Assembly (NCBI GenBank): GCA_965223545.1
Contig: OZ245006.1
Location: 7,008,001-7,072,000, forward strand
Direction of reading: 5' to 3'
Source of the DNA: Planctomycetota bacterium
Lineage (GTDB): Bacteria; Planctomycetota; UBA1135; UBA2386
DNA length: 64,000 nucleotides
Shown here: piece by piece, positions 2,801-60,300 of the stretch
Layout: each line of letters begins with the position of its first letter
Numbering within the stretch: the stretch's first letter is position 1
Position numbers and translations under genes: made by a program
Notes under the pieces: model-generated
What the model saw: the letters and a program-made list of their open reading frames with translations, nothing else
Database searches by the model: none
Told to the model about the DNA's origin: nothing

Positions 2801-4414
2801 ATGGATCAGACTCTGAAGGCGCTCGTTCGGTACTTGGAGGAGGGAAAACCCGAGCTGAAGATCGCGGCGACCCAAGTGCTGGGGGAACTGGCGCCGAAGG
2901 ACGCGGCGGTCGCCAAGGCGCTGGCGGAGCGCCTGTCGCGCGAGGAGTCGTTCTTGACTCCGTTCGTGTTGGAGGCCCTGGGGCGGATCCACACGCCGGA
3001 ATCGGTCGCGGTGTTGGTCGAGCGGTTGCACGTCGGCGGCACCGTCGCCGAGCGCGTGACCCACTTGTTGACCCACATGGGCGGCGGCGTGGTCAAGGCG
3101 TTGGCACCGATGTTCGACGGGGCGGACGCCGAGCTGCGTGACCGAATCCTCAGCATCGTCGGCGGGCAGCGCGACAAGGACGCGGTGCAGTTCTTGCTGA
3201 AGGCGCTGCTGCACCACGATCCGGCGATCTCGGAGAAGGCCCGCGAGGTGATGGCGGTGCAGGTCGACGAGTTCGGCGAGAAGGAGCGCGCCGCGGTCAA
3301 GTCCGGCCTGGACAAGGCGCTCGCCGCCAACAAGGTGTCGTCGCTGACCCCGGTCGCGATCGCCGACGCGGTCGGCGTGTTGGGGCGGCTGGATGCCGCC
3401 GGTAGCCGCGCGACGCTGCTGCGGTTCGCCACGCCGAAGCACGAGGGTATCGTCCGCCAGGCCGCGCTGCGGGCACTGGAGGACGTTGCGCTGACCCCGG
3501 CGCAAGCGGCCACGGTGGTGTCGTACGTGAAGGAGGACGACATGACCCACGTCGTGCGGCCGGCGATGCAGGTGCTCGATGGCCGCACCGAGTGGAACGC
3601 GTCGGCTGGCGACACGCTCGGTCGCCTGCTCGACAGCGATAGCGAGGAGCGCGCACTGTTCGCTCTGCGTGCGCTGCGCGGGCGGCGCACCGAGGCGATG
3701 GCCAACCACTGCCTCAAGTTCTTGTTCGACGACGAGGCCGAGTTCCAGCGCGCTGCGGCCGAGGCCCTGGCCGCCAACTCCGCCGCGCTGAAGCCGCTGC
3801 TGAAGGCGCTGCAGGGTGAGCGCAGCGTCGACCGAGCGCGCCTGCTGAGCAGGCCGCTCGCCGCGCTGGCGGCCAAGCTGACCGCGGCGCAGCTGAAGAG
3901 CTTGATCGAGAAGACGGCCAAGCTGGTCACTGCCGGCGAGCCGATGGGCGACGTCTACCTGAGTGTCGTTGCCGCGGCACCGGACGGGCCCGGGCAGCTG
4001 GTCGACAAGGCGGTGCGGCTGCGGCGCGCGCGGCGCGTCGACGAGGCCCTCACCCTGATGATTCGGTTGGCGCAGCTCGACCGATTGCCGGACGAGGGGC
4101 GCTACCAAATCGGAGTGGCGCGGTTGATGGCCGATGCCGCGGAGAGCCGGCCCGCCGAGCGCAAGGAAGCCGGCGATGCGACGATGGGCTACTTCGCCCA
4201 CCTGATCCGGGCCGACTTTCCGCTGTTCGAGCGCCTGAAGAAAGAGGGGCAGCTGCGGCCGGAGGATCTCCTCCGGGTGGGACGGCACTTCGCCGAAGGC
4301 GTCGCTCAAGAGCGGCGCGTGGGCGGCCAGCTGCTGCACCTCGTGGCGCAAAAGCACGGCAAGCAGCGCGTCGGCGAGGAGGCCAAACTGATGCTGCGCA
4401 CCGAAGGGCTCTGA
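2801..4414 (+). CDS. HEAT/armadillo-repeat alpha-solenoid protein
   Basis: Repeated helical units (LEALGRI, VRQAALRAL, QRAAAEALA) and a natural codon pattern. Confidence 0.75.
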   Translation: MDQTLKALVRYLEEGKPELKIAATQVLGELAPKDAAVAKALAERLSREESFLTPFVLEALGRIHTPESVAVLVERLHVGGTVAERVTHLLTHMGGGVVKALAPMFDGADAELRDRILSIVGGQRDKDAVQFLLKALLHHDPAISEKAREVMAVQVDEFGEKERAAVKSGLDKALAANKVSSLTPVAIADAVGVLGRLDAAGSRATLLRFATPKHEGIVRQAALRALEDVALTPAQAATVVSYVKEDDMTHVVRPAMQVLDGRTEWNASAGDTLGRLLDSDSEERALFALRALRGRRTEAMANHCLKFLFDDEAEFQRAAAEALAANSAALKPLLKALQGERSVDRARLLSRPLAALAAKLTAAQLKSLIEKTAKLVTAGEPMGDVYLSVVAAAPDGPGQLVDKAVRLRRARRVDEALTLMIRLAQLDRLPDEGRYQIGVARLMADAAESRPAERKEAGDATMGYFAHLIRADFPLFERLKKEGQLRPEDLLRVGRHFAEGVAQERRVGGQLLHLVAQKHGKQRVGEEAKLMLRTEGL

Positions 4415-5192
4415 GCCTCCGGGTCCGCAAATCTTCGCGCGGCGAAAACCTTTCGGAAGGCTCGATGCCGCTGGAACTTCGACAACGCGGCTCCCGGAGG
4501 CTCGAAGACAACACTGGCCTCTGGGCTCAGCGCGGCCGCCGGCGACCGCCGGACCCGCGGCCGATGCTCGGGTCGCGGAATACTCCGTTCTTGGTTGCGG
4601 CCTCGGCCGCGCTGAGCCTCCGGCGCCTCGAATCTTCGAGCTTCGACAACATTTTCGAGGCGACGTCGCTGCCATGGCAACGTCGCCGCGGCGCCGGAGG
4701 CTCGGAGAGACAGTGCCTCCTGGCTCAGCGCGGCGGCGGATGTGTCAGGCCTTCCAAGCTGCTCCGGAAAAAGCGGCATCCGAGTCTGGTTGCGGCCGTG
4801 GCCGCGCTGAGCCTCAGGGTCCACAAATCTTCGCGCGGCGACAACCTTTCCGAAGGCTCGATGCCGCTGGAACTTCGACAACGCAGCTCCCGGAGGCTCG
4901 AAGACAACACTGGCGTCTGCGCTCAGCGCGGCCGGCCGGCAAAGTGGGAATCGCGGGCACTGCTACTGTCGCGGTGACACTCCGTCTTTGGTTGCAGCCC
5001 TGGCCGCGCTGAGCGTCCGGGGCCGAGAATCTTCGCGCGGCGACAACCTTTCCGAAGGCCGGTCGTCGTCAGGACTTCGATACTGCAACTCCCGGACGCT
5101 CGAAAGCAACACTGGCGTCTGCGCTCAGCGCGGCCGGCCGGCAAAGTGGGAATCGCGGGCACTGCTACTGTCGCGGTGACACTCCGTCTTTG
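4411..5192. repeat. Mosaic array of four ~200-bp structured repeat units (REPIN/BIME-like), left part of locus A
   Basis: (G)CTGAGC motif at 4411, 4611, 4806 and 5008; each unit is bounded by GGCCGCGCTGAGC...GCTCAGCGCGG(CC); homologous array at 55518-60300. Confidence 0.9.
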
Positions 5193-5207
5193 ATATCTCC
5201 TAAGTCA

Positions 5208-5213
5208 TGTCAA
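5208..5213 (-). promoter_or_regulatory. Outward-facing -35 box (TTGACA) completing a sigma70-like promoter on circularisation
   Basis: The joined ends give TTGACA-N17-TATGTG, with the -10-like hexamer at 7125-7130. Confidence 0.6.
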
Positions 5214-5255
5214 GGGGTTTTCGCTGGGGCTCGACATCGCGTGTGCACGGCTTGT

Positions 5256-6758
5256 TCAGGACTCTTCCACAAGACCAGGGAAGTGTTCTTGCATGAGATC
5301 ACCGATCGGGTGAGGTTGACGTGGGGATTCCACGGCCAGGCCTGTGGCGTCCATTGGGCGGCCACTCAAGTCCCTCGTCGTCGGAGTCCCCACTCGTCCC
5401 TGTCGCCGTTGGTCGCGCTCATGCCGCTGTGGCGCGACGATGCTGCGCGTGAACTTGGCTGCGATGAGCGCGCGCGCGGCAACCTTCGTGAGCTCGTTGC
5501 CGTCGGCGTCTCGCAGGACGTAGCGGACTTGCGTCGACGCCGGCTTGTCATCGGCGCGCTGGCTGTCGCGACGCTTCAGGAGGGCGTAGACGCGGCGCGC
5601 CATCTTGCCAGCCAATGCGATGAGGATGAGGTTGTGGTGATCACCTGCGGCGTAGCGGCGAGCGTAGTACGCCGCGAAATCCGGATCCCACTGGCGAGCG
5701 ACGTCAGCTGCTAGGTAGAGGTACTTCTTGAGTACTCGTTGGCCGGTTTTGGTGATTGGCATCGAGGGGTCGCTCATGCCCGTCTGCTTCCGGCGTGGAC
5801 ACAGTCCGCAGTAGCTCACGAACTTCTTGCCGTTCGAGAACCGCGCGATGTCGCCTACCAAGGCTTCGATGGCCGCAGCGATCGTGGGACCGACGCCGCG
5901 CAGTTGCTCGAGTGTTCGGTCAGGATCGACGCCCAGGTAGAGCTTCTTGATCTTTGCGTCGAGCTTGCGAACGTCCGTGTTCTTGCGCTCGATCTCATCC
6001 AGCTCGTACACCACATCCTCTTGGATGGCCTCGTAGTCGAACGGCATCTGCCCCGCAGCTCGCAGCTCAGCGTAGTACTCGGCGGCCTGTCGGCAGGACT
6101 CGAGCACGCGGTCGACCAAGCACGGGTCATGCGTTCCCTTGGATCGCTTCGTCAAGAAGCGCTCCAAGCGACTCTTCCCAAGGCCGACCGCTTTCACCGG
6201 ATCGACGTAGCGCCGCAGAAACCCCATCTTAGCGGCACTGAACTTCTCTGCCCCCAAGGCCTTCATGAGGCTGGGATTCGCCAGTACCAGTATCGCGTGC
6301 ACACGACGCTTGTGGTCGCTGAGCTCGCGCGCCAACCGCTCACGCCGCTTCACGAGTCGACGGATCGTCGTCTCGTCGGCAGTTGGAACACGCAGCTGGT
6401 GGACGCCCTTTGGATCCATCTGCGGCAGACGCGCAGCGGCCTCGGCGTCTACTACGTCGGTTTTGGTGTGCTTGCTATAGAACTTCCGCAGGTCGCTCAG
6501 CTTCTGTGGTTTGCTCACGTAGATCTGGAACCCTGCGGCGTTCACGTGCGCCGCGATGGGCAGCCACGCCAACCCCGTTGGTTCCATCACGAAGCTCACC
6601 GGACCCTCGGCACCTTCCTGTGCACGGCGCAGCAGAAGGTCAATACCCTCACGGCTGTTCTCGACTGAAAACGGTCTGCCCCGAGACTTCGCACCATCCA
6701 GAACGACGGCTCGGTGCTTGCTCCTCAAGCCGAGATCCAATCCAACGAATCGATTCAT
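5256..6758 (-). CDS. IS110-family DEDD recombinase/transposase, 500 aa
   Basis: GLDLG, MEPTG and KTDVVDA (DEDD); GVGPTIAA...RFSNGKKFVSYCGLCP...QTG Tnp domain; C-terminal extension. Confidence 0.95.
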   Translation of the reverse strand: MNRFVGLDLGLRSKHRAVVLDGAKSRGRPFSVENSREGIDLLLRRAQEGAEGPVSFVMEPTGLAWLPIAAHVNAAGFQIYVSKPQKLSDLRKFYSKHTKTDVVDAEAAARLPQMDPKGVHQLRVPTADETTIRRLVKRRERLARELSDHKRRVHAILVLANPSLMKALGAEKFSAAKMGFLRRYVDPVKAVGLGKSRLERFLTKRSKGTHDPCLVDRVLESCRQAAEYYAELRAAGQMPFDYEAIQEDVVYELDEIERKNTDVRKLDAKIKKLYLGVDPDRTLEQLRGVGPTIAAAIEALVGDIARFSNGKKFVSYCGLCPRRKQTGMSDPSMPITKTGQRVLKKYLYLAADVARQWDPDFAAYYARRYAAGDHHNLILIALAGKMARRVYALLKRRDSQRADDKPASTQVRYVLRDADGNELTKVAARALIAAKFTRSIVAPQRHERDQRRQGRVGTPTTRDLSGRPMDATGLAVESPRQPHPIGDLMQEHFPGLVEES

Positions 6759-6789
6759 GTCCCCTCCATGTTCAACGAGTGAGTGTCGA

Positions 6790-7115
6790 CGAGAGGACTC
6801 TCCCTACCCGCGCAGTCCGCCTGAGGAGGCGAGTCGCCAAAACGGTTCGTGTTTCGGGGCCGTGATTTCTCACGCCGCCAATCTCCTAAATCGGGTCCCC
6901 CACGCGGGAGGAGAGTCGCAGAACCAAATGAGGGGCCGCTCGAAGCGCCACCATTGCGGCAGATCGCGAAACCTCTCCGTCGCACGCCGGGGGACCCTAA
7001 GCTCTCTTGCGGCCGATGACCAGACTCCCGACACGACTCCTGCGGCTGCACCATCGCGCGAGTCTTCCACACCGCTACGGCGCGACGGGTGTGGAGAACT
7101 CTAGCTTCGCAGATC
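6790..7115 (-). ncRNA. Predicted bridge RNA of IS110 element 1 (boundaries approximate)
   Basis: Nested stems (6893-6900/6990-6997; CGTGA-GAAA-TCACG at 6861-6874). Loop segments match the target (6954-6960, 6922-6928) and the element ends (6881-6889, 6841-6846). Confidence 0.7.
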
Positions 7116-7132
7116 ATGGAACCACACATACC

Positions 7133-7167
7133 GTTGCGGCCCTGGCCGCGCTGAGCGTCCGGGGCCG
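7133..7167. repeat. Right remainder of repeat locus A
   Basis: GTTGCGGCCCTGGCCGCGCTGAGCGTCCGGGGCCG, nearly identical to 4991-5025. Confidence 0.9.
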
Positions 7168-36999: not shown

Positions 37000-37089
37000 G
37001 ACGTACGGAGTCAGGCTCGATTTTCTCGCTTGGCGGCGGTGCATCCGCACCGCCGCCAAGCGAGAAAATCGAGCCTGACTCCGTACGTC
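37000..37089. repeat. Perfect inverted repeat, 43-bp arms with a 4-nt loop
   Basis: GACGTACGGAGTCAGGCTCGATTTTCTCGCTTGGCGGCGGTGC-ATCC-exact reverse complement. Confidence 0.95.
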
Positions 37090-46694: not shown

Positions 46695-49372
46695 CCCGGC
46701 GCAATCGGCGCCACTTCGTCCCCGTCGACGAGGCACCCGGGCCGGGGCTGTCGAGCCGCGCGCGCGAGGTGGTGGCGCTGCTGGTCATCGGCGTTTGCCT
46801 GTACTTGGTGTTGTCGCTGTCCACGTTCGTGCTACCGGCGCCGATGGAGACCGCCGTCCCGCGCGGCGGTCTGCGCAACACCGGCGGCGTCGTGGGGCAC
46901 TACCTGGCCCACGGTCTGCTGTTCGTCTTCGGCTTCGCCGCCTACTTGCTCGTCGGCTTCGGCCTCCTCTACGGGATGCTGCTGATCTTGCAGCGGCCGC
47001 TGCGGTCGCCGCAGCTGAAAGCGCTCGGCGCAGTCGCGTTCACCGCGTTGGTCGCACTCTTGTTGGCCGGGCCGAGCGGCTTGGCGGGGCTCTGCGACGC
47101 CGCGCCCTACGGGGCCGGCGGCCGGCTCGGCGCCAACCTGTCACCCAAGTTGCAGGCCGCGTTCGGCGGGGCGGGTCGGTTGCTGTTGCTGATCTTCGGC
47201 GCGCTGGTGTCGCTCATGCTGGCGACCGAGTGGCTGCTGACCGGCATGGTGCGAGAGGGGGTCGGTGGCGTGGGCGCCGGCGTCGGGCAGCTGCGCGCGC
47301 GATTGGCGGAGCGGCGTGGCGAGGCCGATGTGGCGGTAGCTGAGGACGAGGAGGAGCACGAGGGCGAAGACGAAGACGAAGACGAAGAGGACGAGGAAGA
47401 CGAGGCTGACGAGGAGGACGAGGAAGACGAAGACGAGGAATACGAAGAGGACGAGGAAGAGGAGGAAGACGAGGAGTACGAGGACGAAGACGAAGAAGAC
47501 GAGGAAGACGAAGAGGAAGGCGAGGAGGAAGATGATCCCGGCGACGTCGAGGAAACCGGCGAGGACGCCGACGGCGTGCCGGAACCCGCTGCCGAGGCGC
47601 CGCCGCCGGCGAAGCCGGCGCGCCGCCGGGCGGAGACGGGGCGCGCAGCCGCGGCGCGCTCCGGCGCCGCGCCCGCCCGGCGGGCGGTCCCGGTGCGCAA
47701 GCCGCAGCCCCGCCGGCGCAAGGGCCCGGCGATGCTCCCCTTCGTCGACGCCGACTACCCGTTCCCGCCCCACGAGCTGTTCCGCGAGCCGGTCGAGGTC
47801 GACGACTCGGCGGCGCGGTCGGTGATCGAGCAGAATGCCCGCGCCATCGAGCGGCGGCTGGGGTCGTTCAAGATCGGCGCAGCGGTGGTGGGGGTCAGCC
47901 AGGGGCCGGCGGTGACCCAGTACGAGCTCCGCCTAGAGGAGGGCATCAAGGTCAGCCGCATCAACAGCTACGAGGCCGACTTGGCGGCGGCGCTGCGCGC
48001 GGTCTCGGTGCGCGTGGTGGCGCCGATCCCGGGCCGCGACACGATCGGCATCGAAGTGCCGAACGAGGAGCGGCAGATGGTGGTCATGCGCGAGCTGCTC
48101 GACCTGTTCGGCCGCGCCGAAGACCAGGCGATCCCGTTGTTCCTCGGCAAGGACGTCGCCGGCGAGCCCATCGTCGAGGACCTGGCCCGCATGCCCCACT
48201 TGCTGATCGCCGGCACCACCGGGTCGGGCAAGTCGGTGTGCATCAACGCCATTTTGCTGTCCGTTTTGATGACGCGCACGCCGCGGCAGGTGCGGCTGGT
48301 GCTGATCGACCCCAAGATGGTCGAGCTGCAGCACTTCAAGGCGGTGCCCCACCTCGCGTGCGAGGTGGTGACCAACATGAAGAAGGCGCCCGGCGTGCTC
48401 GAGTGGGCGGTCGAGGAGATGGAGAAGCGCTACGCGCTGTTCAGCAGCGTCGGCGTCAACCACATCCGCTCCTACAACAAGCTCGGCCAGGCCGAGCTCG
48501 AGCGCCGGCTGCAACGACCGGTGGAGCCGGCCGACGTCACCCTGCCCTACCAAGTGGTGGTCATCGACGAGCTGGCCGATCTGATGGCCGTCGCGCACAA
48601 GGAGGTCGAGGAGTCGATCCAGCGCCTGGCGCAGAAGTCGCGGGCGGTGGGGCTGCACGTGATCCTGGCGACCCAGCGGCCGTCGACCGACGTCATCACC
48701 GGCGTGATCAAGGCCAACCTGCCGTGCCAGATCGCGTTCAAGGTCAACCGGAAGATCGACTCGCGGGTGATTCTCGACAGCAACGGCGCCGAGAAGCTGC
48801 TCGGGCACGGCGACATGCTCTACGTGCCGCCCGGTGCCCACCGCGTGCTGCGCGCGCAGGGTGCGTTCGTTTCGGACGAGGAGATGCTGGCAGTCGTGGC
48901 CTACCTCGAGCAGCACGGGCCGCCGCCCGCCTTCATCCCCGACTTGGTGCAGAGCAAGACCGGCAGCAAGCGGGGGCCGCGCGACCGCGACGACCTGTAC
49001 GACAAGGCTGCCGAGGTGGTTCTCGGCCAGCAGCGCGGCTCGGCGACCCTGCTGCAGCGCGCGCTGTCGGTGGGCTACACCCGGGCGACGCGGCTGCTGG
49101 AGATGATGGAGGAGGACGGCATCGTCGGGCCGTTCGTCGGCTCCAAGTCGCGTGACGTGCTGTTGACCCTGGAGGAGTGGCAGGAGCGCGAGGCCGCCAT
49201 CGAAGCCGAGATGGACGAGATGGACGCCGAAGACCAGGCCGGCGGGGGCGAGTGGTCGGACGGGGCGGAGGCCGCGGCCGACGACGAGGGCCTGGACGAG
49301 GATCCGGGCGCGGGCGACGAGCCCCCGTGGGAGCCCGCGGACGCCGGCGAATCCGCGCCGCGCGCGCCGTAG
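46676..49372 (+). CDS. ftsK: DNA translocase FtsK with acidic linker
   Basis: 4TM N-domain; PHLLIAGTTGSGKS, IDELADLM, ATQRPS and GAEKLLGHGDML; gamma domain. Confidence 0.96.
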   Translation: MASEAVARRNRRHFVPVDEAPGPGLSSRAREVVALLVIGVCLYLVLSLSTFVLPAPMETAVPRGGLRNTGGVVGHYLAHGLLFVFGFAAYLLVGFGLLYGMLLILQRPLRSPQLKALGAVAFTALVALLLAGPSGLAGLCDAAPYGAGGRLGANLSPKLQAAFGGAGRLLLLIFGALVSLMLATEWLLTGMVREGVGGVGAGVGQLRARLAERRGEADVAVAEDEEEHEGEDEDEDEEDEEDEADEEDEEDEDEEYEEDEEEEEDEEYEDEDEEDEEDEEEGEEEDDPGDVEETGEDADGVPEPAAEAPPPAKPARRRAETGRAAAARSGAAPARRAVPVRKPQPRRRKGPAMLPFVDADYPFPPHELFREPVEVDDSAARSVIEQNARAIERRLGSFKIGAAVVGVSQGPAVTQYELRLEEGIKVSRINSYEADLAAALRAVSVRVVAPIPGRDTIGIEVPNEERQMVVMRELLDLFGRAEDQAIPLFLGKDVAGEPIVEDLARMPHLLIAGTTGSGKSVCINAILLSVLMTRTPRQVRLVLIDPKMVELQHFKAVPHLACEVVTNMKKAPGVLEWAVEEMEKRYALFSSVGVNHIRSYNKLGQAELERRLQRPVEPADVTLPYQVVVIDELADLMAVAHKEVEESIQRLAQKSRAVGLHVILATQRPSTDVITGVIKANLPCQIAFKVNRKIDSRVILDSNGAEKLLGHGDMLYVPPGAHRVLRAQGAFVSDEEMLAVVAYLEQHGPPPAFIPDLVQSKTGSKRGPRDRDDLYDKAAEVVLGQQRGSATLLQRALSVGYTRATRLLEMMEEDGIVGPFVGSKSRDVLLTLEEWQEREAAIEAEMDEMDAEDQAGGGEWSDGAEAAADDEGLDEDPGAGDEPPWEPADAGESAPRAP

Positions 49373-49502: not shown

Positions 49503-51293
49503 ATGTCTGTGCAGACCTTCGCGGAGCCGGCGCGTGGCTCCAATCCTCGTCTGGGCTGGGCTTGGCCCATGCTCCCCGCCACGGTGGCGATGTTCTGCTT
49601 GACGTCGCTGATCTGCTACCACGTGTGGTGGGACGGCGCGGTCGAAGCCAGCGGCCTCTGGCAGTCGTTGACCGTCGGGATCTACCGATTCTTCGGCTTC
49701 GCGCCCGCCGTCGTGCTGTCGCTCATGGTGTTGGTGTGGAGCACCATCTGGTACGTCAGCGGCGCCATCGAGCGGCCGCTCGCACGCGTGCTCAAGGTGC
49801 TCGCGCTGACGCTGAGTCTGGCGATCGTCACCAGCCTGCGCGCCGACCCGTCCGAGGTCGTGCAGGGTGGCGTGATCGGCGAGTTCTTGGCCGTCCGGCT
49901 GCAGAGCGTGGTCGGGCACACGGTGAGCCTCGTGCTCATCGTGCCGGCCGTGGTGTGTTCGTTCCTGCTGGCGACGGACTTCCTGTTCCACCGCTACTTC
50001 GAGGACGCCACCGTGGACGGCGGCGAAGAGGCTGGTGTCGAGGCCGAGGCGGTTGCCGAGATGCAGGCGTTGCGGCTGGATGGTGCGGGTGCCGCCGTGC
50101 TGGAGCGTCCGGCGCCGGCGCGTCCGCAGGTGGTCGGTGCCGCCGGGGACGAGGAGGAGCGCGCCGAAGAACGTGCCGAAGAGGGCGCCGGCCAGGTCGA
50201 CCGGGAGGAGGCCCTCGGAGACGAGGACGAAGCCGCGGACGGAGACGCCGACGGCGTGATCGAGATGGCGGACGACTCGCCCTACCGGCGGCGCCGATGG
50301 CGCCGCTACGCGCACCTCGTCGTCGACTCGGAGCGGCTCCGCCGACACCCGCGCGGGGATGCCGACGACGAGGACGAGGCCAGCACTGGTGCACCGGCAG
50401 GGCTCGAACGAGAGCAAGCCACCGAGACGGTGACCGTGCTGGGGCGGCGCCGCGCGGCGGCCCTCGACCGGGACGTCGAGGACGTCGAAGACACCGACGA
50501 GCCGGTCGGGATCGCCGAGGTGGGCGAATTGGAGGAAGAGGAGACCGTCGTGCTGGCGGATGGCGATGCGACCGACAGTGAGCTCGGCGAGGGCGAGCTG
50601 GTTGAAGAGGAGCTCGAGGAAGACGTCGAGGACGAAGCCGAAGAGGCGGAAGGCGACGACTACGAGGACGAGGAGTACGAAGAGGAAGAGGACGAAGAGG
50701 AAGACGAGGACGTCGACGACGAGGACGAGGTCGACGAGGAAGACGAGGAAGAATACGAAGACGAAGAGGAAGCCGAAGAGGAAGGCGCCGAGGACGAGCA
50801 GGACGTCGAGCTGAGCTACGAAGAGGATGCCGAGGACGCGGATGAAGAAGACGCGGACGCGGACGACGAGGAGTACGAAGAGGACGAAGACGAGGAAGAG
50901 GCCGAAGTCGAGGACGAAGACGAGTACGAAGAGGACGCCACCGAAGAGGACGCCAGCGACGAGGACGACGTCGACGTCCCACAGGATCCGCGCGCCGGGG
51001 CCGGCACCCCGCGGACCGTCGAAGTGCCCAAGCCAGAGTGGCGCGTCGGTGGTCAGCCGGCCTCGCGGCAGGGCACGCTGTTCGAGGCCGCTGGCGAGGA
51101 CGCGGGGCTGCTGGAGGATGCCACCGACCTCGTCGTGAGCGCCCGGCGCGCCAGCGTTACCCTGCTCCAGCGCCGGCTTCGGCTGAGCTACGTCGATGCC
51201 CGCGATCTGTTGGATGCCCTGCGTGCGCGGGGCGTGGTGGGCGGCGAGCGCGGCGCCCCGCAGGGTGAGGTGCTGGTGGAGTCGGCCTCATAG
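49503..51293 (+). CDS. FtsK-like protein: TM domain + acidic region + gamma domain, no ATPase
   Basis: N-terminal TMs with GGVIGEFLA...LLATDFL; C-terminal LLEDATDLVVSARRASVTLLQRRLRLSY...GVVG; no Walker motifs. Confidence 0.8.
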   Translation: MSVQTFAEPARGSNPRLGWAWPMLPATVAMFCLTSLICYHVWWDGAVEASGLWQSLTVGIYRFFGFAPAVVLSLMVLVWSTIWYVSGAIERPLARVLKVLALTLSLAIVTSLRADPSEVVQGGVIGEFLAVRLQSVVGHTVSLVLIVPAVVCSFLLATDFLFHRYFEDATVDGGEEAGVEAEAVAEMQALRLDGAGAAVLERPAPARPQVVGAAGDEEERAEERAEEGAGQVDREEALGDEDEAADGDADGVIEMADDSPYRRRRWRRYAHLVVDSERLRRHPRGDADDEDEASTGAPAGLEREQATETVTVLGRRRAAALDRDVEDVEDTDEPVGIAEVGELEEEETVVLADGDATDSELGEGELVEEELEEDVEDEAEEAEGDDYEDEEYEEEEDEEEDEDVDDEDEVDEEDEEEYEDEEEAEEEGAEDEQDVELSYEEDAEDADEEDADADDEEYEEDEDEEEAEVEDEDEYEEDATEEDASDEDDVDVPQDPRAGAGTPRTVEVPKPEWRVGGQPASRQGTLFEAAGEDAGLLEDATDLVVSARRASVTLLQRRLRLSYVDARDLLDALRARGVVGGERGAPQGEVLVESAS

Positions 51294-55522: not shown

Positions 55523-55616
55523 GCGTCGGGGGCCGAGGATGTTCGAGCGGCGAGCGGCACAACCTGTCGGAAGGCTCGATGCCGCTGGAACTTCGACAAC
55601 GCAACTCCCGGAGGCT
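55518..55616. repeat. Left part of repeat locus B
   Basis: GCTGAGC...GAAGGCTCGATGCCGCTGGAACTTCGACAACGCAACTCCCGGAGGCT, homologous to 4806-4898. Confidence 0.9.
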
Positions 55617-55982
55617 TCCATGAGAGGGGCGATCCCGTCAACAGCTCTTTGTCTGTGGATCTGTTCTTCTTGAGAATCTGGGCGCCTTGGCGCCGCCCTG
55701 CGCGACAAGCTTCGGACTCCGCAGGCTTCCATACGCACTCTGATGGCCTCGTCCGAGACCGGTGCACGATGAGATCCGTCCGACCCGGCGCAGCTTTCTT
55801 CCATGAGAGGGGCGATCCCGTCAACAGCTCTTTGTCTGTGGATCTGTTCTTCTTGAGAATCTGGGCGCCTTGGCGCCGCCCTGCGCGACAAGCTTCGGAC
55901 TCCGCAGGCTTCCATACGCACTCTGATGGCCTCGTCCGAGACCGGTGCACGATGAGATCCGTCCGACCCGGCGCAGCTTTCT
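55615..55982. repeat. Exact tandem duplication, period 183 bp, of the IS right end
   Basis: 55615-55799 equals 55798-55982, overlapping at CT. Confidence 0.93.
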
Positions 55983-56080
55983 CGATAACGGCCTCGAGGG
56001 CCAAGCCTCCGGTCGCTGTCGCCGGGATCGGGCGGTGAGTCTTCAGCAGTGCAGGAGCGGCATCACGCCAGGTTCCTCCA
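55880..56080 (-). ncRNA. Predicted bridge/seek RNA of IS1111-type element 2 (boundaries approximate)
   Basis: Stem-enclosed loop with CCGGAGGCU (56004-56012) and UCGAG (55981-55985) matching the target; second loop with AUCUCAUC and AUGGAAG matching the circle junction. Confidence 0.75.
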
Positions 56081-57068
56081 CGGTATTCGGTTGGTTGGGG
56101 GTGGGGCGATCATGGTTGGGTCATACCGCGGTGTGGGCAGCTACGCGGTCGCTGTTGTGGAGTGGGTCGTAGACCAAGCCATGACGCCACAGCCGATGCA
56201 GCAGTAGCGCGAGCTTGCGGGCAACCGCGACCGCCGCGCGTTTCCTCGCGCCGCGGCCGCCGCGGGCGATCAGGCGTTGCCCGAAGCGCCGGAGGTCACA
56301 GTCCTTGCCGAACGGGCCGAGGATGTAGTGCGCACACTGCACCAGAAGCCGTCTCAGATAGCCGTCGCCAGCCTTGCTGATCGACAGCTCCGGATTGCTG
56401 TCGCCCGACGCGAAGCTCTTTGGGCACAAGCCGAGCCAGGAGCCCACGCGGCGGCTTTCGGCGAATCGTGTCGGATCCTCGATCGTCAGCACGAACGCGG
56501 TCGCTGTGACCGGCCCCACGCCGTTGACTTGCTGCACGACGGCGACCTCGGGGTATCGCTCGCGGCTCGCCTCGACGAGCGCCTTGTCGAGCTCGTCGAT
56601 CCGGCGGGACAGGTCGGCGATCAAGTCCAGCAGCGGCTCCGCCGCAGTGAGTAGCAGGACCGGCATGGACTCGCGAGCTCGCTTCGGGAACGCCGCGGTC
56701 GATGCCGACGGCAGCCGGACGCCGAAGCCCTTCGCCAGGCTCCGGACCTGCTGCACTGCCATCGTCCGCATCCTCACCAGCAGGTCGCGCGCACGAATGA
56801 CCGACAGGTCGGCCTGTGCCTGCTCGCTGCGGTGGTGGATCGTGCCGAGCAACTCGGGCATCCCTGCCTCCAGGCGAGCCAGGGTCTCGGCATCGCGCCG
56901 GTCGGTCTTGCGAGGATCCTTGGCGATCAGCTGCACTCGGCGCGGGTCCACGACGTGAACGTCGTAGCCCTCCGAGCGCAACCGCCGAGACATCCAGGCC
57001 GACTGCGAGCCGTAACTGTTCCGGCAACCACGTCTGCAAACGCTCGAGTCGTTCGCCACGATGCGGCC

Positions 57069-57398
57069 ATGTCGAAGCGAGCAAGTCGTCGCCGTGAGAT
57101 CCGGCAGGTTCTCGCGCTCCGCGAGCAGGAAGGGTTTTCGCTGCGTGCGCTCTCGGAGCGGTTCGGTATCCCGATCGGGACGCTGAGTTGGTGGTCGCAT
57201 CGGTTGCGATCGGAGGAGAGCACTGGGTTCGCGGAGGTCCGAGTCGTCGATCGCGATGGTCGGGGCCGGACGAGTAACGACGAGGGCGAGAGCTCGAGCC
57301 TTGTGCGGCTCAGGTTCCCGGCGGGCGTCGTCGCGGAGTTCGAGGGCGCGATTGCTCAAGACATCGCGTACCGCTTGCTGGACTCTGTGGCCGACTGA
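57069..57398 (+). CDS. tnpA: IS66 TnpA accessory HTH protein
   Basis: GFSLRALSERFGIPIGTLSWW...FAEVRV. Confidence 0.85.
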   Translation: MSKRASRRREIRQVLALREQEGFSLRALSERFGIPIGTLSWWSHRLRSEESTGFAEVRVVDRDGRGRTSNDEGESSSLVRLRFPAGVVAEFEGAIAQDIAYRLLDSVAD

Positions 57399-57811
57399 TG
57401 CTGGCCTTCCCAGCGGGCGTGCGCGTGTACGTCGCCAACGAGCCAACCGACATGAGGAAGTCGTTCGACGGGCTGAGCGCGATCGTCCAGCACAGCTTTC
57501 ATCGGGATCCGTTCGATGGCGACGTCTTCGCGTTCTTCAACCGGCGTCGCGATCGCGTGAAGATCTTGTTCTGGGATCGCAACGGTTTCTGGATCTCGAT
57601 GAAGCGACTCGAGCGCGGCACGTTTGACAGTTGGCGTCCCAAGAGCGGCGACGCCACACATGTCGAAGTCGAGCGCGCACAGCTCGTGATGTTGCTCGAA
57701 GGGATTGATCTGAAATCCGCCAAGTTTCGTCGGCATTACTCGCGCTCTGTTCGTATCAATGGTCGCGATGGGCGGTCGCAAGCAAACGGTCAACGTCGAC
57801 GCACTGGATGA
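57398..57811 (+). CDS. tnpB: IS66 accessory protein TnpB
   Basis: PTDMRKSFDGL, FFNRRRDRVKILFWD and KRLERGTF. Confidence 0.95.
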   Translation: MLAFPAGVRVYVANEPTDMRKSFDGLSAIVQHSFHRDPFDGDVFAFFNRRRDRVKILFWDRNGFWISMKRLERGTFDSWRPKSGDATHVEVERAQLVMLLEGIDLKSAKFRRHYSRSVRINGRDGRSQANGQRRRTG

Positions 57812-59381
57812 GGCGCAGCTACGTGCCTTGATCCCGGATCTGCTCACGCAGATCTCGTCGCTGAAGTCGCAGATGTCCGACCTTCAGCGCATGCTGTTCG
57901 GTCGCCGCTCGGAGAAGAGCCGCTACATCGACCCGCGACAGCTGCTGCCGTTCGCGCAAGAGGCTGTAGAGGAAGCGGGAGCCGACGCCAAGGCGGCCGA
58001 AGAAGAGGCCGAAGAGATCACCGTCCCCGAGCACAAGCGCAAGCGCACCAAGCGACGCAAGGACTTCCCAGAGCATCTTCCGCGGCAACGCTCCGTATTC
58101 ACGATCGAGGGCGAGGACCTGCTGTGCCCTTGCTGCGGCAACGGCCGTCGGGAGTTCGGCGAAGAGGTCTCGCAGGAGCTCGAGCGCATCGAGCTCTCGT
58201 TCGTCCACCAGATCGTGAGGAAGAAGTACTCCTGCGCGACCTGTCAGGGCTACGTCGTCGTCGCCGCGGGCCCCACCCGAGTCCTCGACAAAAGCATCCT
58301 CGGCCCCGGCTTCCTTGCGCAGATCATCTTCGACCGCTTTGCCAACCACATGCCGTACGCGCGGTTGGAGAAGAAGTACGCAGCCGAGGGGCTCAGCCTG
58401 TCGCGTAGCGTCCTATGCACTTCGGCGATGCGCTGTGCCGAGCTCCTGAAGCCCGTGTTCGATGCCCATGTCGAGCAAGTTCTCGAGAGCCTCGACACCT
58501 CCGTCCTGCAGGTGGACGACACCTACGGCAACCAGCGCAACGGCCGAAACCCCGGACAGAAAAAGATCCACGTGTGGGCGTGGCGCGATCAACACGCCGG
58601 GGTTTTCTACACCGCTACGGACTCACGCAATCGCGGCAGCCCCAAAGAGGTCTTGGGCGACCGCGGTGGTCGGTTGCAGTGCGATGGCCATGACTGCTAC
58701 AGCGATCTCGATCCAACCAGCATCGCGCGCATCGGATGCTGGGCACACCTTCGTCGCTACTTCGTGAATGCGCGGAAGCTCGGCGACTCGACCACGGAGA
58801 AGGCTCTGGGCTGGATCGGCAAGCTGTTCGCGATCGAGAGCGTCGCCAAGAAGGGCAAAGATGGTCGACCCTTCACGGATGACGAGCTGGTCGAGGTCCG
58901 TCAGCGCGACTCTCGCCCGATTGCGAACGCGCTCAAGGCTTGGCTCGAGCAGATGCACATCGACCAGCCGAGCCTCCCGAAGGGGCCGCTCATGGAGGGA
59001 GTTCGCTACGGGCTCAACCAGTGGCCTGCTCTCGAGCGCTTCCTGACCGATGGCCGCATCCGCGAGATCTCGAACAACGGTTGCGAGCGTGCTCTGCGTG
59101 CAGTCGTGATCGGCAAGAAGAACTGGCTCTTCTTCGGATCCGAGGACGGCACCCAAGCTTCACTCATCCTCTTGAGTCTCGTCCAGTCGTGTCGAGAGCA
59201 TGGCATCAGCCCGCTGCTCTACCTGCGGGATGTGCTTCACGCGATCTCGACCACTCCTGCCTCCCAGGTCGGTCAGCTGACTCCGCGTGGCTGGATGCTG
59301 GGACGGCAACGGCGTGCCCAGATCGCCAAAGCCGACAACGCGATCGACAACATCGTGCGTCAGTTGTTCGTGGGCTCGTAG
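57759..59381 (+). CDS. tnpC: IS66 DDE transposase
   Basis: FGRRSEK, Zn ribbon, LQVDDT, LQCDG, CWAHLRR and SNNGCERALR..IGKKNWLF. Confidence 0.95.
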   Translation: MVAMGGRKQTVNVDALDEAQLRALIPDLLTQISSLKSQMSDLQRMLFGRRSEKSRYIDPRQLLPFAQEAVEEAGADAKAAEEEAEEITVPEHKRKRTKRRKDFPEHLPRQRSVFTIEGEDLLCPCCGNGRREFGEEVSQELERIELSFVHQIVRKKYSCATCQGYVVVAAGPTRVLDKSILGPGFLAQIIFDRFANHMPYARLEKKYAAEGLSLSRSVLCTSAMRCAELLKPVFDAHVEQVLESLDTSVLQVDDTYGNQRNGRNPGQKKIHVWAWRDQHAGVFYTATDSRNRGSPKEVLGDRGGRLQCDGHDCYSDLDPTSIARIGCWAHLRRYFVNARKLGDSTTEKALGWIGKLFAIESVAKKGKDGRPFTDDELVEVRQRDSRPIANALKAWLEQMHIDQPSLPKGPLMEGVRYGLNQWPALERFLTDGRIREISNNGCERALRAVVIGKKNWLFFGSEDGTQASLILLSLVQSCREHGISPLLYLRDVLHAISTTPASQVGQLTPRGWMLGRQRRAQIAKADNAIDNIVRQLFVGS

Positions 59382-59772
59382 CCCAGCCAGCTACGGACGG
59401 TCACCGTCGTGGCCGGCGCCGGTGCCGACACCCGGTGGCCGAAGTTTCTGTTCATGCGCCGGTTCGGCGCGGCGCGAAGAACGTGCGTGCCGGAACAGTT
59501 ACTGCGAGCCGGCCTCGAGAGCGACTCTGGCGCCCGGGAAGTCGCTCAGCGCCTTCGAGAGCGCTGTCGGCGTCGTCGGGAAACTGCCCCGCGCAACGAC
59601 CGTCCGCGACGCGTCCAGTGCGCAGTAGTGGATGTTCCGATCGCCAATGTCGAGACCGATGGTCACGGGGGAGGTCTGAGCGGTAACTTTGGTCATGGGT
59701 CGATCTGCTCCTTTGATTTTGCAGCGCCATTGTGTGGCGACTGCGTCGGAGGGATCGACCCTCTCATCCCAT

Positions 59773-60300
59773 CTCGAAAGCAACACTGGCGTCTGCGCTC
59801 AGCGCGGCCGCCGGCGACCGCGGGACCCGCGACCGACGCTCGGGTCGCGGAATGCTTCGTGTTTGGTTGCGGCCTCGGCCGCGCTGAGCCTCCGGCGCCT
59901 CGAATCTTCGAGCTTCGACAACATTTTCGAGGCGACGCCGCTGACATGGCAACGTCGCCGCCGCGCCGGAGGCTCGGAGAGACAGTGCCTCCTGGCTCAG
60001 CGCGGCGGCGGATGTGTCCGGCCTTCCAATCCGCTCCGGCAAGAGCGGCATCCGAGTTTGGTTGCGGCCGTGGCCGCGCTGAGCCTCGGGGTCCGCAAAT
60101 CTTCGCGCGGCGACAACCTTTCGGAAGGCTCGATGCCGCTGGAACTTCGACAACGCAGCTCCCGGAGGCTCGAAGACAACACTGGCCTCCGGGCTCAGCG
60201 CGGCCGCCGGCGCCGGCGACCGCGGGACCCGCGACCGACGCTCGGGTCGCGGAATGCTCGGTGTTTGGTTGCGGCCTCGGCCGCGCTGAGCCTCGGGGTC
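59773..60300. repeat. Right part of repeat locus B (~2.5 units)
   Basis: GCTGAGC at 59883, 60078 and 60285; closely similar to 4500-4930. Confidence 0.92.

Follow-up and report, generated by a model that had tools for sequence, protein, structure and literature searches.

A predicted bridge RNA in an IS110-group element of a Planctomycetota bacterium and the apparently unmatched core between its donor and target

We analysed a 64,000-nucleotide stretch of a Planctomycetota genome (the window) that carries an IS110-group element. The leader of this element, with a probability of about 0.8 in our estimate, encodes a bridge RNA that would work like that of IS621 without the need of a core common to donor and target. 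As first described, the bridge RNA follows a known layout and is ordinary in that respect; the noteworthy part is the unmatched core, which is found across a group of elements. The features are listed below with their window positions and the evidence used.

5193..7132, minus strand: IS110-group element, 1940 bp, without terminal duplication (11 identical copies with the same junctions; rejoined flanks; X3 contig)
7133..7141, minus strand: left target with target core position AC (7134-7133) (GCCGCAAC ahead of 11/11 copies)
5189..5192, minus strand: right target CAAA (behind 11/11 copies)
4383..5182, no strand: host repeat array of ~200-bp units, the next unit split by the element (repeat analysis and 12-mer count)
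5193..5201, minus strand: left donor site (7 nt) with donor core position AT (5194-5193) (junctions, guide pairing)
7124..7132, minus strand: right donor site, the element's first bases, containing a weak -10-like hexamer at 7125-7130 (guide pairing)
5208..5213, minus strand: -35 hexamer TTGACA, 17 nt from the -10-like hexamer after end joining (sequence; spacing in relatives)
5256..6758, minus strand: IS110 recombinase, 500 aa, with D8, E59, D101 and D104, and Thr326 at the place of IS621 Ser241 (PF01548 and PF02371; alignment columns; profile alignment to 8WT6)
6827..7002, minus strand: predicted bridge RNA, ends approximate (match to model R1, with the window in its training set; 16/24 pairs with compensatory change)
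6893..6999, minus strand: target-binding domain, outer stem 6990-6999/6893-6900 and inner stem 6973-6978/6910-6915 (sequence, consensus fold)
6953..6961, minus strand: left target guide, 9 nt, with 7 exact matches at 6954-6960, the last U wobbling with the target's last core pair (covariation with left flanks)
6932..6952, minus strand: target-loop inner hairpin (helix 4, 99% paired)
6922..6928, minus strand: right target guide (4 nt) and core/handshake positions (3 nt) (60/64 pairs with right flanks, 16 elements)
6881..6889, minus strand: left donor guide, conserved part 6881-6887 (5-7 of 7 matches to the right end, 16/16 elements)
6856..6880, minus strand: donor-loop inner hairpin, with flanking motifs as in the target-loop hairpin (helix 5, 95% paired)
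6841..6852, minus strand: right donor guide, ACC plus core/handshake GUU with discontinuous extension ACAC (flank comparison, pairing)

The host genome (8.1 Mb, 69.7% G+C) contains 11 copies of the element, all 100% identical, and their identity implies that the element would have been mobile recently. GCCGCAAC precedes and CAAA follows the element in every copy; the same 12-mer at 11/11 copies shows the site specificity of the IS110 group. The joined target 12-mer occurs 95 times in the genome against ~0.9 expected, and 94 of these occurrences lie inside a family of ~200-bp repeats. The repeat that harbours the element is REP-like. At nine of the 11 insertions the flanks were rejoined without gain or loss of a base, as an ungapped match to empty repeat copies; the remaining two are wholly or half outside the repeat. 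Between the copies at G000:C1:7271523-7273463 and 5135757-5137697, one has a one-sided repeat flank, which suggests a rearrangement at the element, and another sits at a bare 12-mer outside the repeat. A contig of sequencing run X3 joins 5192 to 7133, skipping exactly 1940 bases with 0 letters common to both sides; this empty-site contig could have come from a different copy of the repeat, and X3 possibly represents the source sample.

The left end (374 nt) is long and the right end (63 nt) short, as is usual for IS110 elements, and no arms at the element ends appeared among the 25 longest inverted repeats of at least 20 nt. When the ends are joined, a candidate promoter arises with a perfect -35 hexamer, a 17-nt spacer and a -10-like hexamer that agrees with the consensus at 3/6 positions; the linear form has no promoter. 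Nearly all relatives having a right end keep a spacing of 17; in the group with a CT core it is 16, together with TATAAT. Protein search (E up to 1e-40) gave 103 homologues, the best at 73% identity, and scans yielded 8 genome loci and 80 metagenome loci. Homologues were not found in 400 genomes of the phylum (single protein query) or in 90 genomes of the family (alignment A1 query), many of these genomes being fragmented. The viral contigs searched contained none, and a plasmid search returned 18 records, with 27-31% identity at the best places.

The preliminary description had read four guide segments by eye, and GCCGCAA (6954-6960), UUUGGUU (6922-6928), UUAGGAGAU (6881-6889) and ACCGUU (6841-6846) all lie on the minus strand where it had put them, together with the stems 6893-6900/6990-6997 and GGAGAG 6973-6978/CUCUCC 6910-6915 and the hairpin 6861-6874. 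The proposed IS621-type layout in the left end of an IS110 element, target loop before donor loop, also held, with guides that co-vary with the flanks of homologues: there are two loops, each built as left guide, hairpin and right guide. When the 374-nt leader was shuffled 20,000 times with its dinucleotides preserved, the guide words turned up in 1.7%, 1.2%, 0.035% and 7.7% of the shuffles, and all of them together in none. That the bridge RNA is real is almost certain, and it would work like that of IS621. The predicted RNA had no Rfam match at E up to 1, and no solo bridge RNA copy beyond the 11 elements was seen among 150 scored candidates.

Some details of the first reading had to be amended. 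UUAGGAGAU is identical to element positions 5195-5203 as claimed, but these are not the tip of the element, since two more bases (5193-5194) follow. The 9-nt left donor match stands for the window element, whereas the conserved left donor guide is only 7 nt (AGGAGAU), the two additional matches being particular to this element. ACCGUU is complementary to 7130-7135, but not to donor sequence only: 7133-7135 are target and the other three bases element. Judged from the letters, the segment fits the insertion product (a half-target, half-element junction) and not the donor circle. Three bases of the right donor guide pair, the next two do not, and as many as four further ones do, which extends the guide to 6852. 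GCCGCAA and UUUGGUU do match the two target halves, but the AA that they were implied to have in common gave way to a register with a 9-nt left guide and a 2-nt core, AC in the target and AT in the donor. A shared AA core (two overlapping 7-mers) was discarded, as it would need AACCAAA at the right junction where TATCAAA stands in 11/11 copies; a one-base C core was likewise discarded, because it would add a base.

Two further observations concern this region. The left-target word (8 nt) recurs at 7007-7014, directly upstream of the predicted RNA, probably by chance. The hairpins of the target loop (6946-6953/6932-6938) and donor loop (6873-6880/6856-6862) are nearly alike in their flanking motifs, as if one loop of the bridge RNA had been derived by duplication of the other.

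We compared the guides of homologues with the DNA beside each element. The RNA alignment consists of the window leader and 19 leader-bearing loci (41-58% protein identity). Near-duplicates (L014, L026, L020, L081, L031, L034), the cut locus L029 and all more distant loci were excluded, as were L035 (long insert, left end not found) and L012, L039 and L005 (matching leader not found). An RNA model built from the alignment matches the leader in 77/88 loci searched, plus the window. At L012:700-1182 a close homologue (58%) with an intact right end has no upstream bridge RNA, and its leader seems to have been replaced by other sequence. The ends of the relatives were placed by conserved end motifs in single metagenome copies, not by empty sites: left ends at the conserved GGTAT 290-400 nt ahead of the gene, and right ends 11 nt past the start of the conserved TTAGG (4 loci without right end).

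The target guides of homologues track each element's own flanks, as the covariance check proposed earlier had called for. The left target guide scored 129 matches with its own left flank (70.2 ± 6.2 expected, n = 20), taking the best of three registers with the null under the same rule. The right target guide matched the right flank at 60/64 positions (26.4 ± 4.3 expected, n = 16), and the core guide fitted the last target base in 19/20 elements (7.9 expected); none of the three values was reached in 100,000 permutations. With a reduced set of 12 elements the scores were 80 vs. 41 (left) and 38 vs. 14.6 (right, 10 with a right end), neither reached in permutations, and 11/12 vs. 4.2 for the core guide (4 of 100,000 permutations). 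Because the right target guide matches four bases beyond the right end, the boundary set there is supported. The donor guides match the element ends in 16/16; covariation of right donor positions 6-9 is weak (40 vs. 34.3, p 0.011), the ends varying little. There were a few misfits: L023 fits neither core guide, the left flank of L028 matches at 3/8 and the right end of L014 is one base shorter. L014, L026, L027, L015 and L020 have 54-58% protein identity yet nearly the target of the window element, and their left guide is shifted one base relative to the scaffold.

The preliminary description would have been contradicted by guides that are base-paired in the fold. In the fold of the single sequence the target guides do pair, one with the other (mean unpaired probability ~0.2), whereas both are open in the consensus fold of 20 relatives. 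The target guides are partly self-complementary because they overlap on the core. Opening all four guides costs 9.4 kcal/mol, compared with 26.1 ± 6.2 for 300 random segment sets, of which 0/300 were as low. Single-sequence folding was set aside as an open-guide test, being misleading in the light of the consensus fold and the low opening cost. A scaffold with open guides (24 pairs) is 96.5% paired in the alignment, with changes on both sides in 16 pairs, and its pairing lies above that of every slid control and of each of the 500 shuffles; the structure itself comes from the same alignment, and two short invariant RNAalifold helices through the donor guides were omitted from it. The 20-element alignment contains no co-varying stem that closes the donor loop.

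Numbered as in IS621, the target reads 7 + AC + CAAA, and the donor reads 7 + AT + GGT. A duplicated core is absent from all 11 copies and the junction overlap is zero, so that the core dinucleotide shared by donor and target in IS621-type systems is missing here. Among 16 relatives with both ends, the donor terminates in T in 14 regardless of the target base. Donor and target have the full 2-nt core in common in four (three AT, one AC) and the last core base alone in one (L023); the other 11 differ at the last base, and their target cores are AC, GC, CC, GG and TG. In 20/20 elements the two loops carry an identical letter as their first core-guide base, which is complementary to the last base of the target in 19/20. 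At core position 9 the guide forms a Watson-Crick pair with the target in 15 of 16 elements and with the donor in four (8 wobble, 4 mismatch), whereas the position 8 guide base forms one with the donor's A in 16/16. Distant relatives (27-30% identity) have a common CT core. In a tree of 26 proteins rooted on these CT-core relatives, there are 5 changes of the target base and 5 of the guide base, the direction of change depending on that root alone. The independent pairs were 4/4 concordant (p = 0.125), too few for significance, and the relatives are kin. No paper describing natural unmatched cores with a tracking donor-loop guide was found by title and abstract start, with most subscription papers, ISfinder and supplements outside the scope of that search.

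The recombinase combines a DEDD RuvC-like domain with a PF02371 domain, as do IS110-group enzymes. Its predicted structure (pLDDT 88) has IS621 and ISCro4 as best fold matches, and differs from them in additional helices within the variable region and in an extended C terminus. At the column of IS621 Ser241, T is found in 22 and S in 47 of 69 aligned close relatives; the window element has Thr326, as counted on the printed profile alignment to 8WT6. Thr326 would be the likely nucleophile, and the literature search found no paper on a threonine nucleophile in such enzymes. A link between the threonine and the unmatched core was considered and dropped, as the Ser members L013-L018 are unmatched and the Thr members L019 and L022 matched.

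How such an element could move may be sketched from published work. In IS621 both top strands are cut after position 9 and swapped (PMC11208158), and positions 6-9 leave one loop to pair with the other, perfect pre-exchange pairing blocking the exchange (PMC11208158; PMC13626964). Top-strand-only insertion has been reported for CazIS110-1 (10.1101/2025.10.25.684509) and single-strand copy-out for IS621 (10.64898/2026.08.31.748434), and matching cores would be unnecessary because of these modes. By analogy with the IS621 and CazIS110-1 work, the top strand of the window element would be copied out into a circle, whose joined ends would form the promoter (TTGACA, 17 nt) that drives the bridge RNA. 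The target loop would open the repeat site and the donor loop would hold the circle junction. Both top strands would be cut right after core position 9 and swapped, and the bottom strand would be completed later by replication or repair. The cores need not match in such a scheme, since it is the exchanged top strands that determine the product, the bottom strand being completed only afterwards; the junctions observed are exactly the products of a top-strand swap. The right guides of both loops carry the same core letter, complementary to target base 9, which wobbles (G) or does not pair (C) with the donor T. Since this letter fits the target and not the donor T, the donor loop would gain a pair and the target loop lose one at the exchange, and this may keep the complex from locking before the exchange. 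We infer that the core has here been turned into an extra handshake position.

Two empty repeat sites, G000:C1:611325-611341 (+) and 537448-537464 (-) (loci L093 and L092), carry GGTAT at the crossover. These are the first five bases of the element (left end) and the only recurring insert at the crossover; the two repeat copies are of different subtype. An insert of GGTAT would result from element deletion between the TAT in both ends, and the sites may be footprints of imprecise loss at this TAT microhomology or an assembly artefact. The footprint 17-mer was not found in 90 family genomes, many of them fragmented, and the literature search found no paper on such footprints.

Several other readings were weighed against insertion without a shared core. 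The element could be of the ordinary IS621 type with a hidden core, the circle taking AC from the left junction and the AT of the right end being restored otherwise. AAC followed by the left end is complementary to the right donor guide over its full length, and the shared cores of the 4/16 near relatives and of the distant CT group point the same way. Yet the right junctions have AT in 11/11 copies and AC in none, the terminal T in 14/16 relatives and the donor-tracking position 8 guide in 16/16 argue against it, and by the top-strand exchange described in PMC11208158 an AC circle would leave AC, not AT, at the right junction; we regard this reading as unlikely. Still less probable is a true target of the footprint form, a repeat site holding GGTAT, with a common TAT core and an element 5 bp shorter. 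Two such sites do exist, and the left guide with the following UGGU fits the longer site with one wobble. Against them stand 95 plain sites (GCCGCAACCAAA), the two insertions wholly or half outside the repeat, where the 17-mer would not pre-exist, the pairing of the right donor guide with GGTAT, and the GGTAT (also the end-placing motif) that begins the element in 20/20 aligned relatives with unrelated targets. The least credible reading is that the matches are due to chance or the guides locked in the fold. The target guides are ~80% paired in the predicted ensemble, but self-complementarity by design, through the core overlap, and the low opening cost speak against locked guides, and the consensus fold, scaffold covariation and guide-flank covariation refute both forms of the reading.

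The alternative with the largest share, although still a minority one, is that the element moves mainly by direct strand transfer without a circle, as in the second pathway of CazIS110-1 or by seekRNA-like use of an RNA that has the target loop only. The donor-loop core guide would then match target bases because the donor loop reads the left junction of the inserted copy. Such transfer has been reported (10.1101/2025.10.25.684509), and the fit of the right donor guide is better at the left junction of an integrated copy than across the joined ends. Neither a circle joint nor guide variants were found in contigs of X3, X5 and X7; contigs drop rare forms, and the lack of a circle joint thus lends weak support and is not evidence of absence. 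Over the joined ends the -35 and -10-like hexamers stay 17 nt apart throughout the group, which argues for circles. Direct transfer and the circle route are compatible, and both predict the absence of a shared core. We retain the bridge RNA that acts without a common core as the main reading. Slightly better than even, in our view, are the chances of a wider claim: a widespread group of large (~500 aa) bridge recombinases with unmatched cores as the normal mode, in which the donor AT is constant, the target core varies (AC, GC, CC, GG, TG), one guide base in each loop is adjusted to the target, and threonine serves as the nucleophile in many members.

The window also contains a second, unrelated IS110-like element (~55600-59780) in the same repeat family at another position, with three more genome copies. 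A multi-copy element of 2.5 kb at 57012-59502, IS66-like by eye, interrupts it, and a 183-bp tandem duplication (55615-55980) lies within its region. A perfect 43-bp inverted repeat with a 4-nt loop was seen at 37000-37089, and long repeats with a 9-15-nt period at 47267-47613 and 50225-50964 code for acidic low-complexity stretches.

At present bridge editing relies on a matching core to pair its sites, and natural insertion without one would widen the range of targetable sites. If the reading is true, bridge editors could be freed of the matching core and of the rule of T at position 9, and core-based mining would have skipped such enzymes or set their boundaries wrongly. Matching cores have served as a design filter, with CT or GT required in an orthogonal-sequence set (10.1101/2025.05.14.653916), and boundary calling treats the core as a repeated sequence (PMC11208160). 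A 2026 survey assigned a common core to core-less elements and discarded the remainder with imprecise boundaries (10.64898/2026.10.21.760802); elements without a called core are thus known to occur. The group may be under-sampled because mining pipelines define elements through a core. Insertion without duplication has long been noted (PMC11187229), so a missing duplication alone is not new, and circles from non-canonical boundaries have been reported (10.64898/2026.08.14.744561). Unmatched cores would also offer a genetic test in the dispute between two-strand Holliday-junction resolution and top-strand-only transfer, because they mark which strand's bases survive at each junction.

Compared with IS621 and ISCro4 (IS622), as described in PMC11208160 and PMC11208158 (PDB 8WT6, 9T56), the window element shares the RuvC-DEDD and Tnp domains, a left-end RNA whose target loop precedes the donor loop, four guides that alternate between strands, a 7+2+4 target of REP type and a junction promoter (a candidate here). 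Its discontinuous right donor guide recalls that of IS621 (PMC11208160). The window recombinase is only ~20% identical to those enzymes and has 500 aa vs. ~326 aa. Unlike IS621, where a near-invariant T at target position 9 is read by Gly63 (PMC11208158), the window element has C (G or T in relatives); it lacks a shared core, its left donor guide pairs 7 bases and not 8, Thr stands at the Ser241 position and the donor loop has no co-varying closing stem. CazIS110-1 (10.1101/2025.10.25.684509) is likewise a multi-copy IS110 element with a two-loop RNA and a longer protein (Ser312 in CazIS110-1). Copy-out and insertion of the top strand, as in that element, would account for a tolerance of cores that do not match, and the word "core" is absent from the searched text of that report. 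As in the ISEc21/ISEc11 seekRNA systems (PMC11187229), insertion occurs without extra bases and the ends would abut in the circle; in those systems, as far as the available text goes, apparent duplications were assigned to the element and a donor-loop core guide that tracks the target is not described. ISPpu10 (10.64898/2026.03.19.712850) and ISPpu9 (PMC12288879) are also IS110 elements with a bridge RNA that target REP repeats. Unlike the window element, they are reported to recombine at a dinucleotide common to donor and target, CT in ISPpu10 and AG in ISPpu9.
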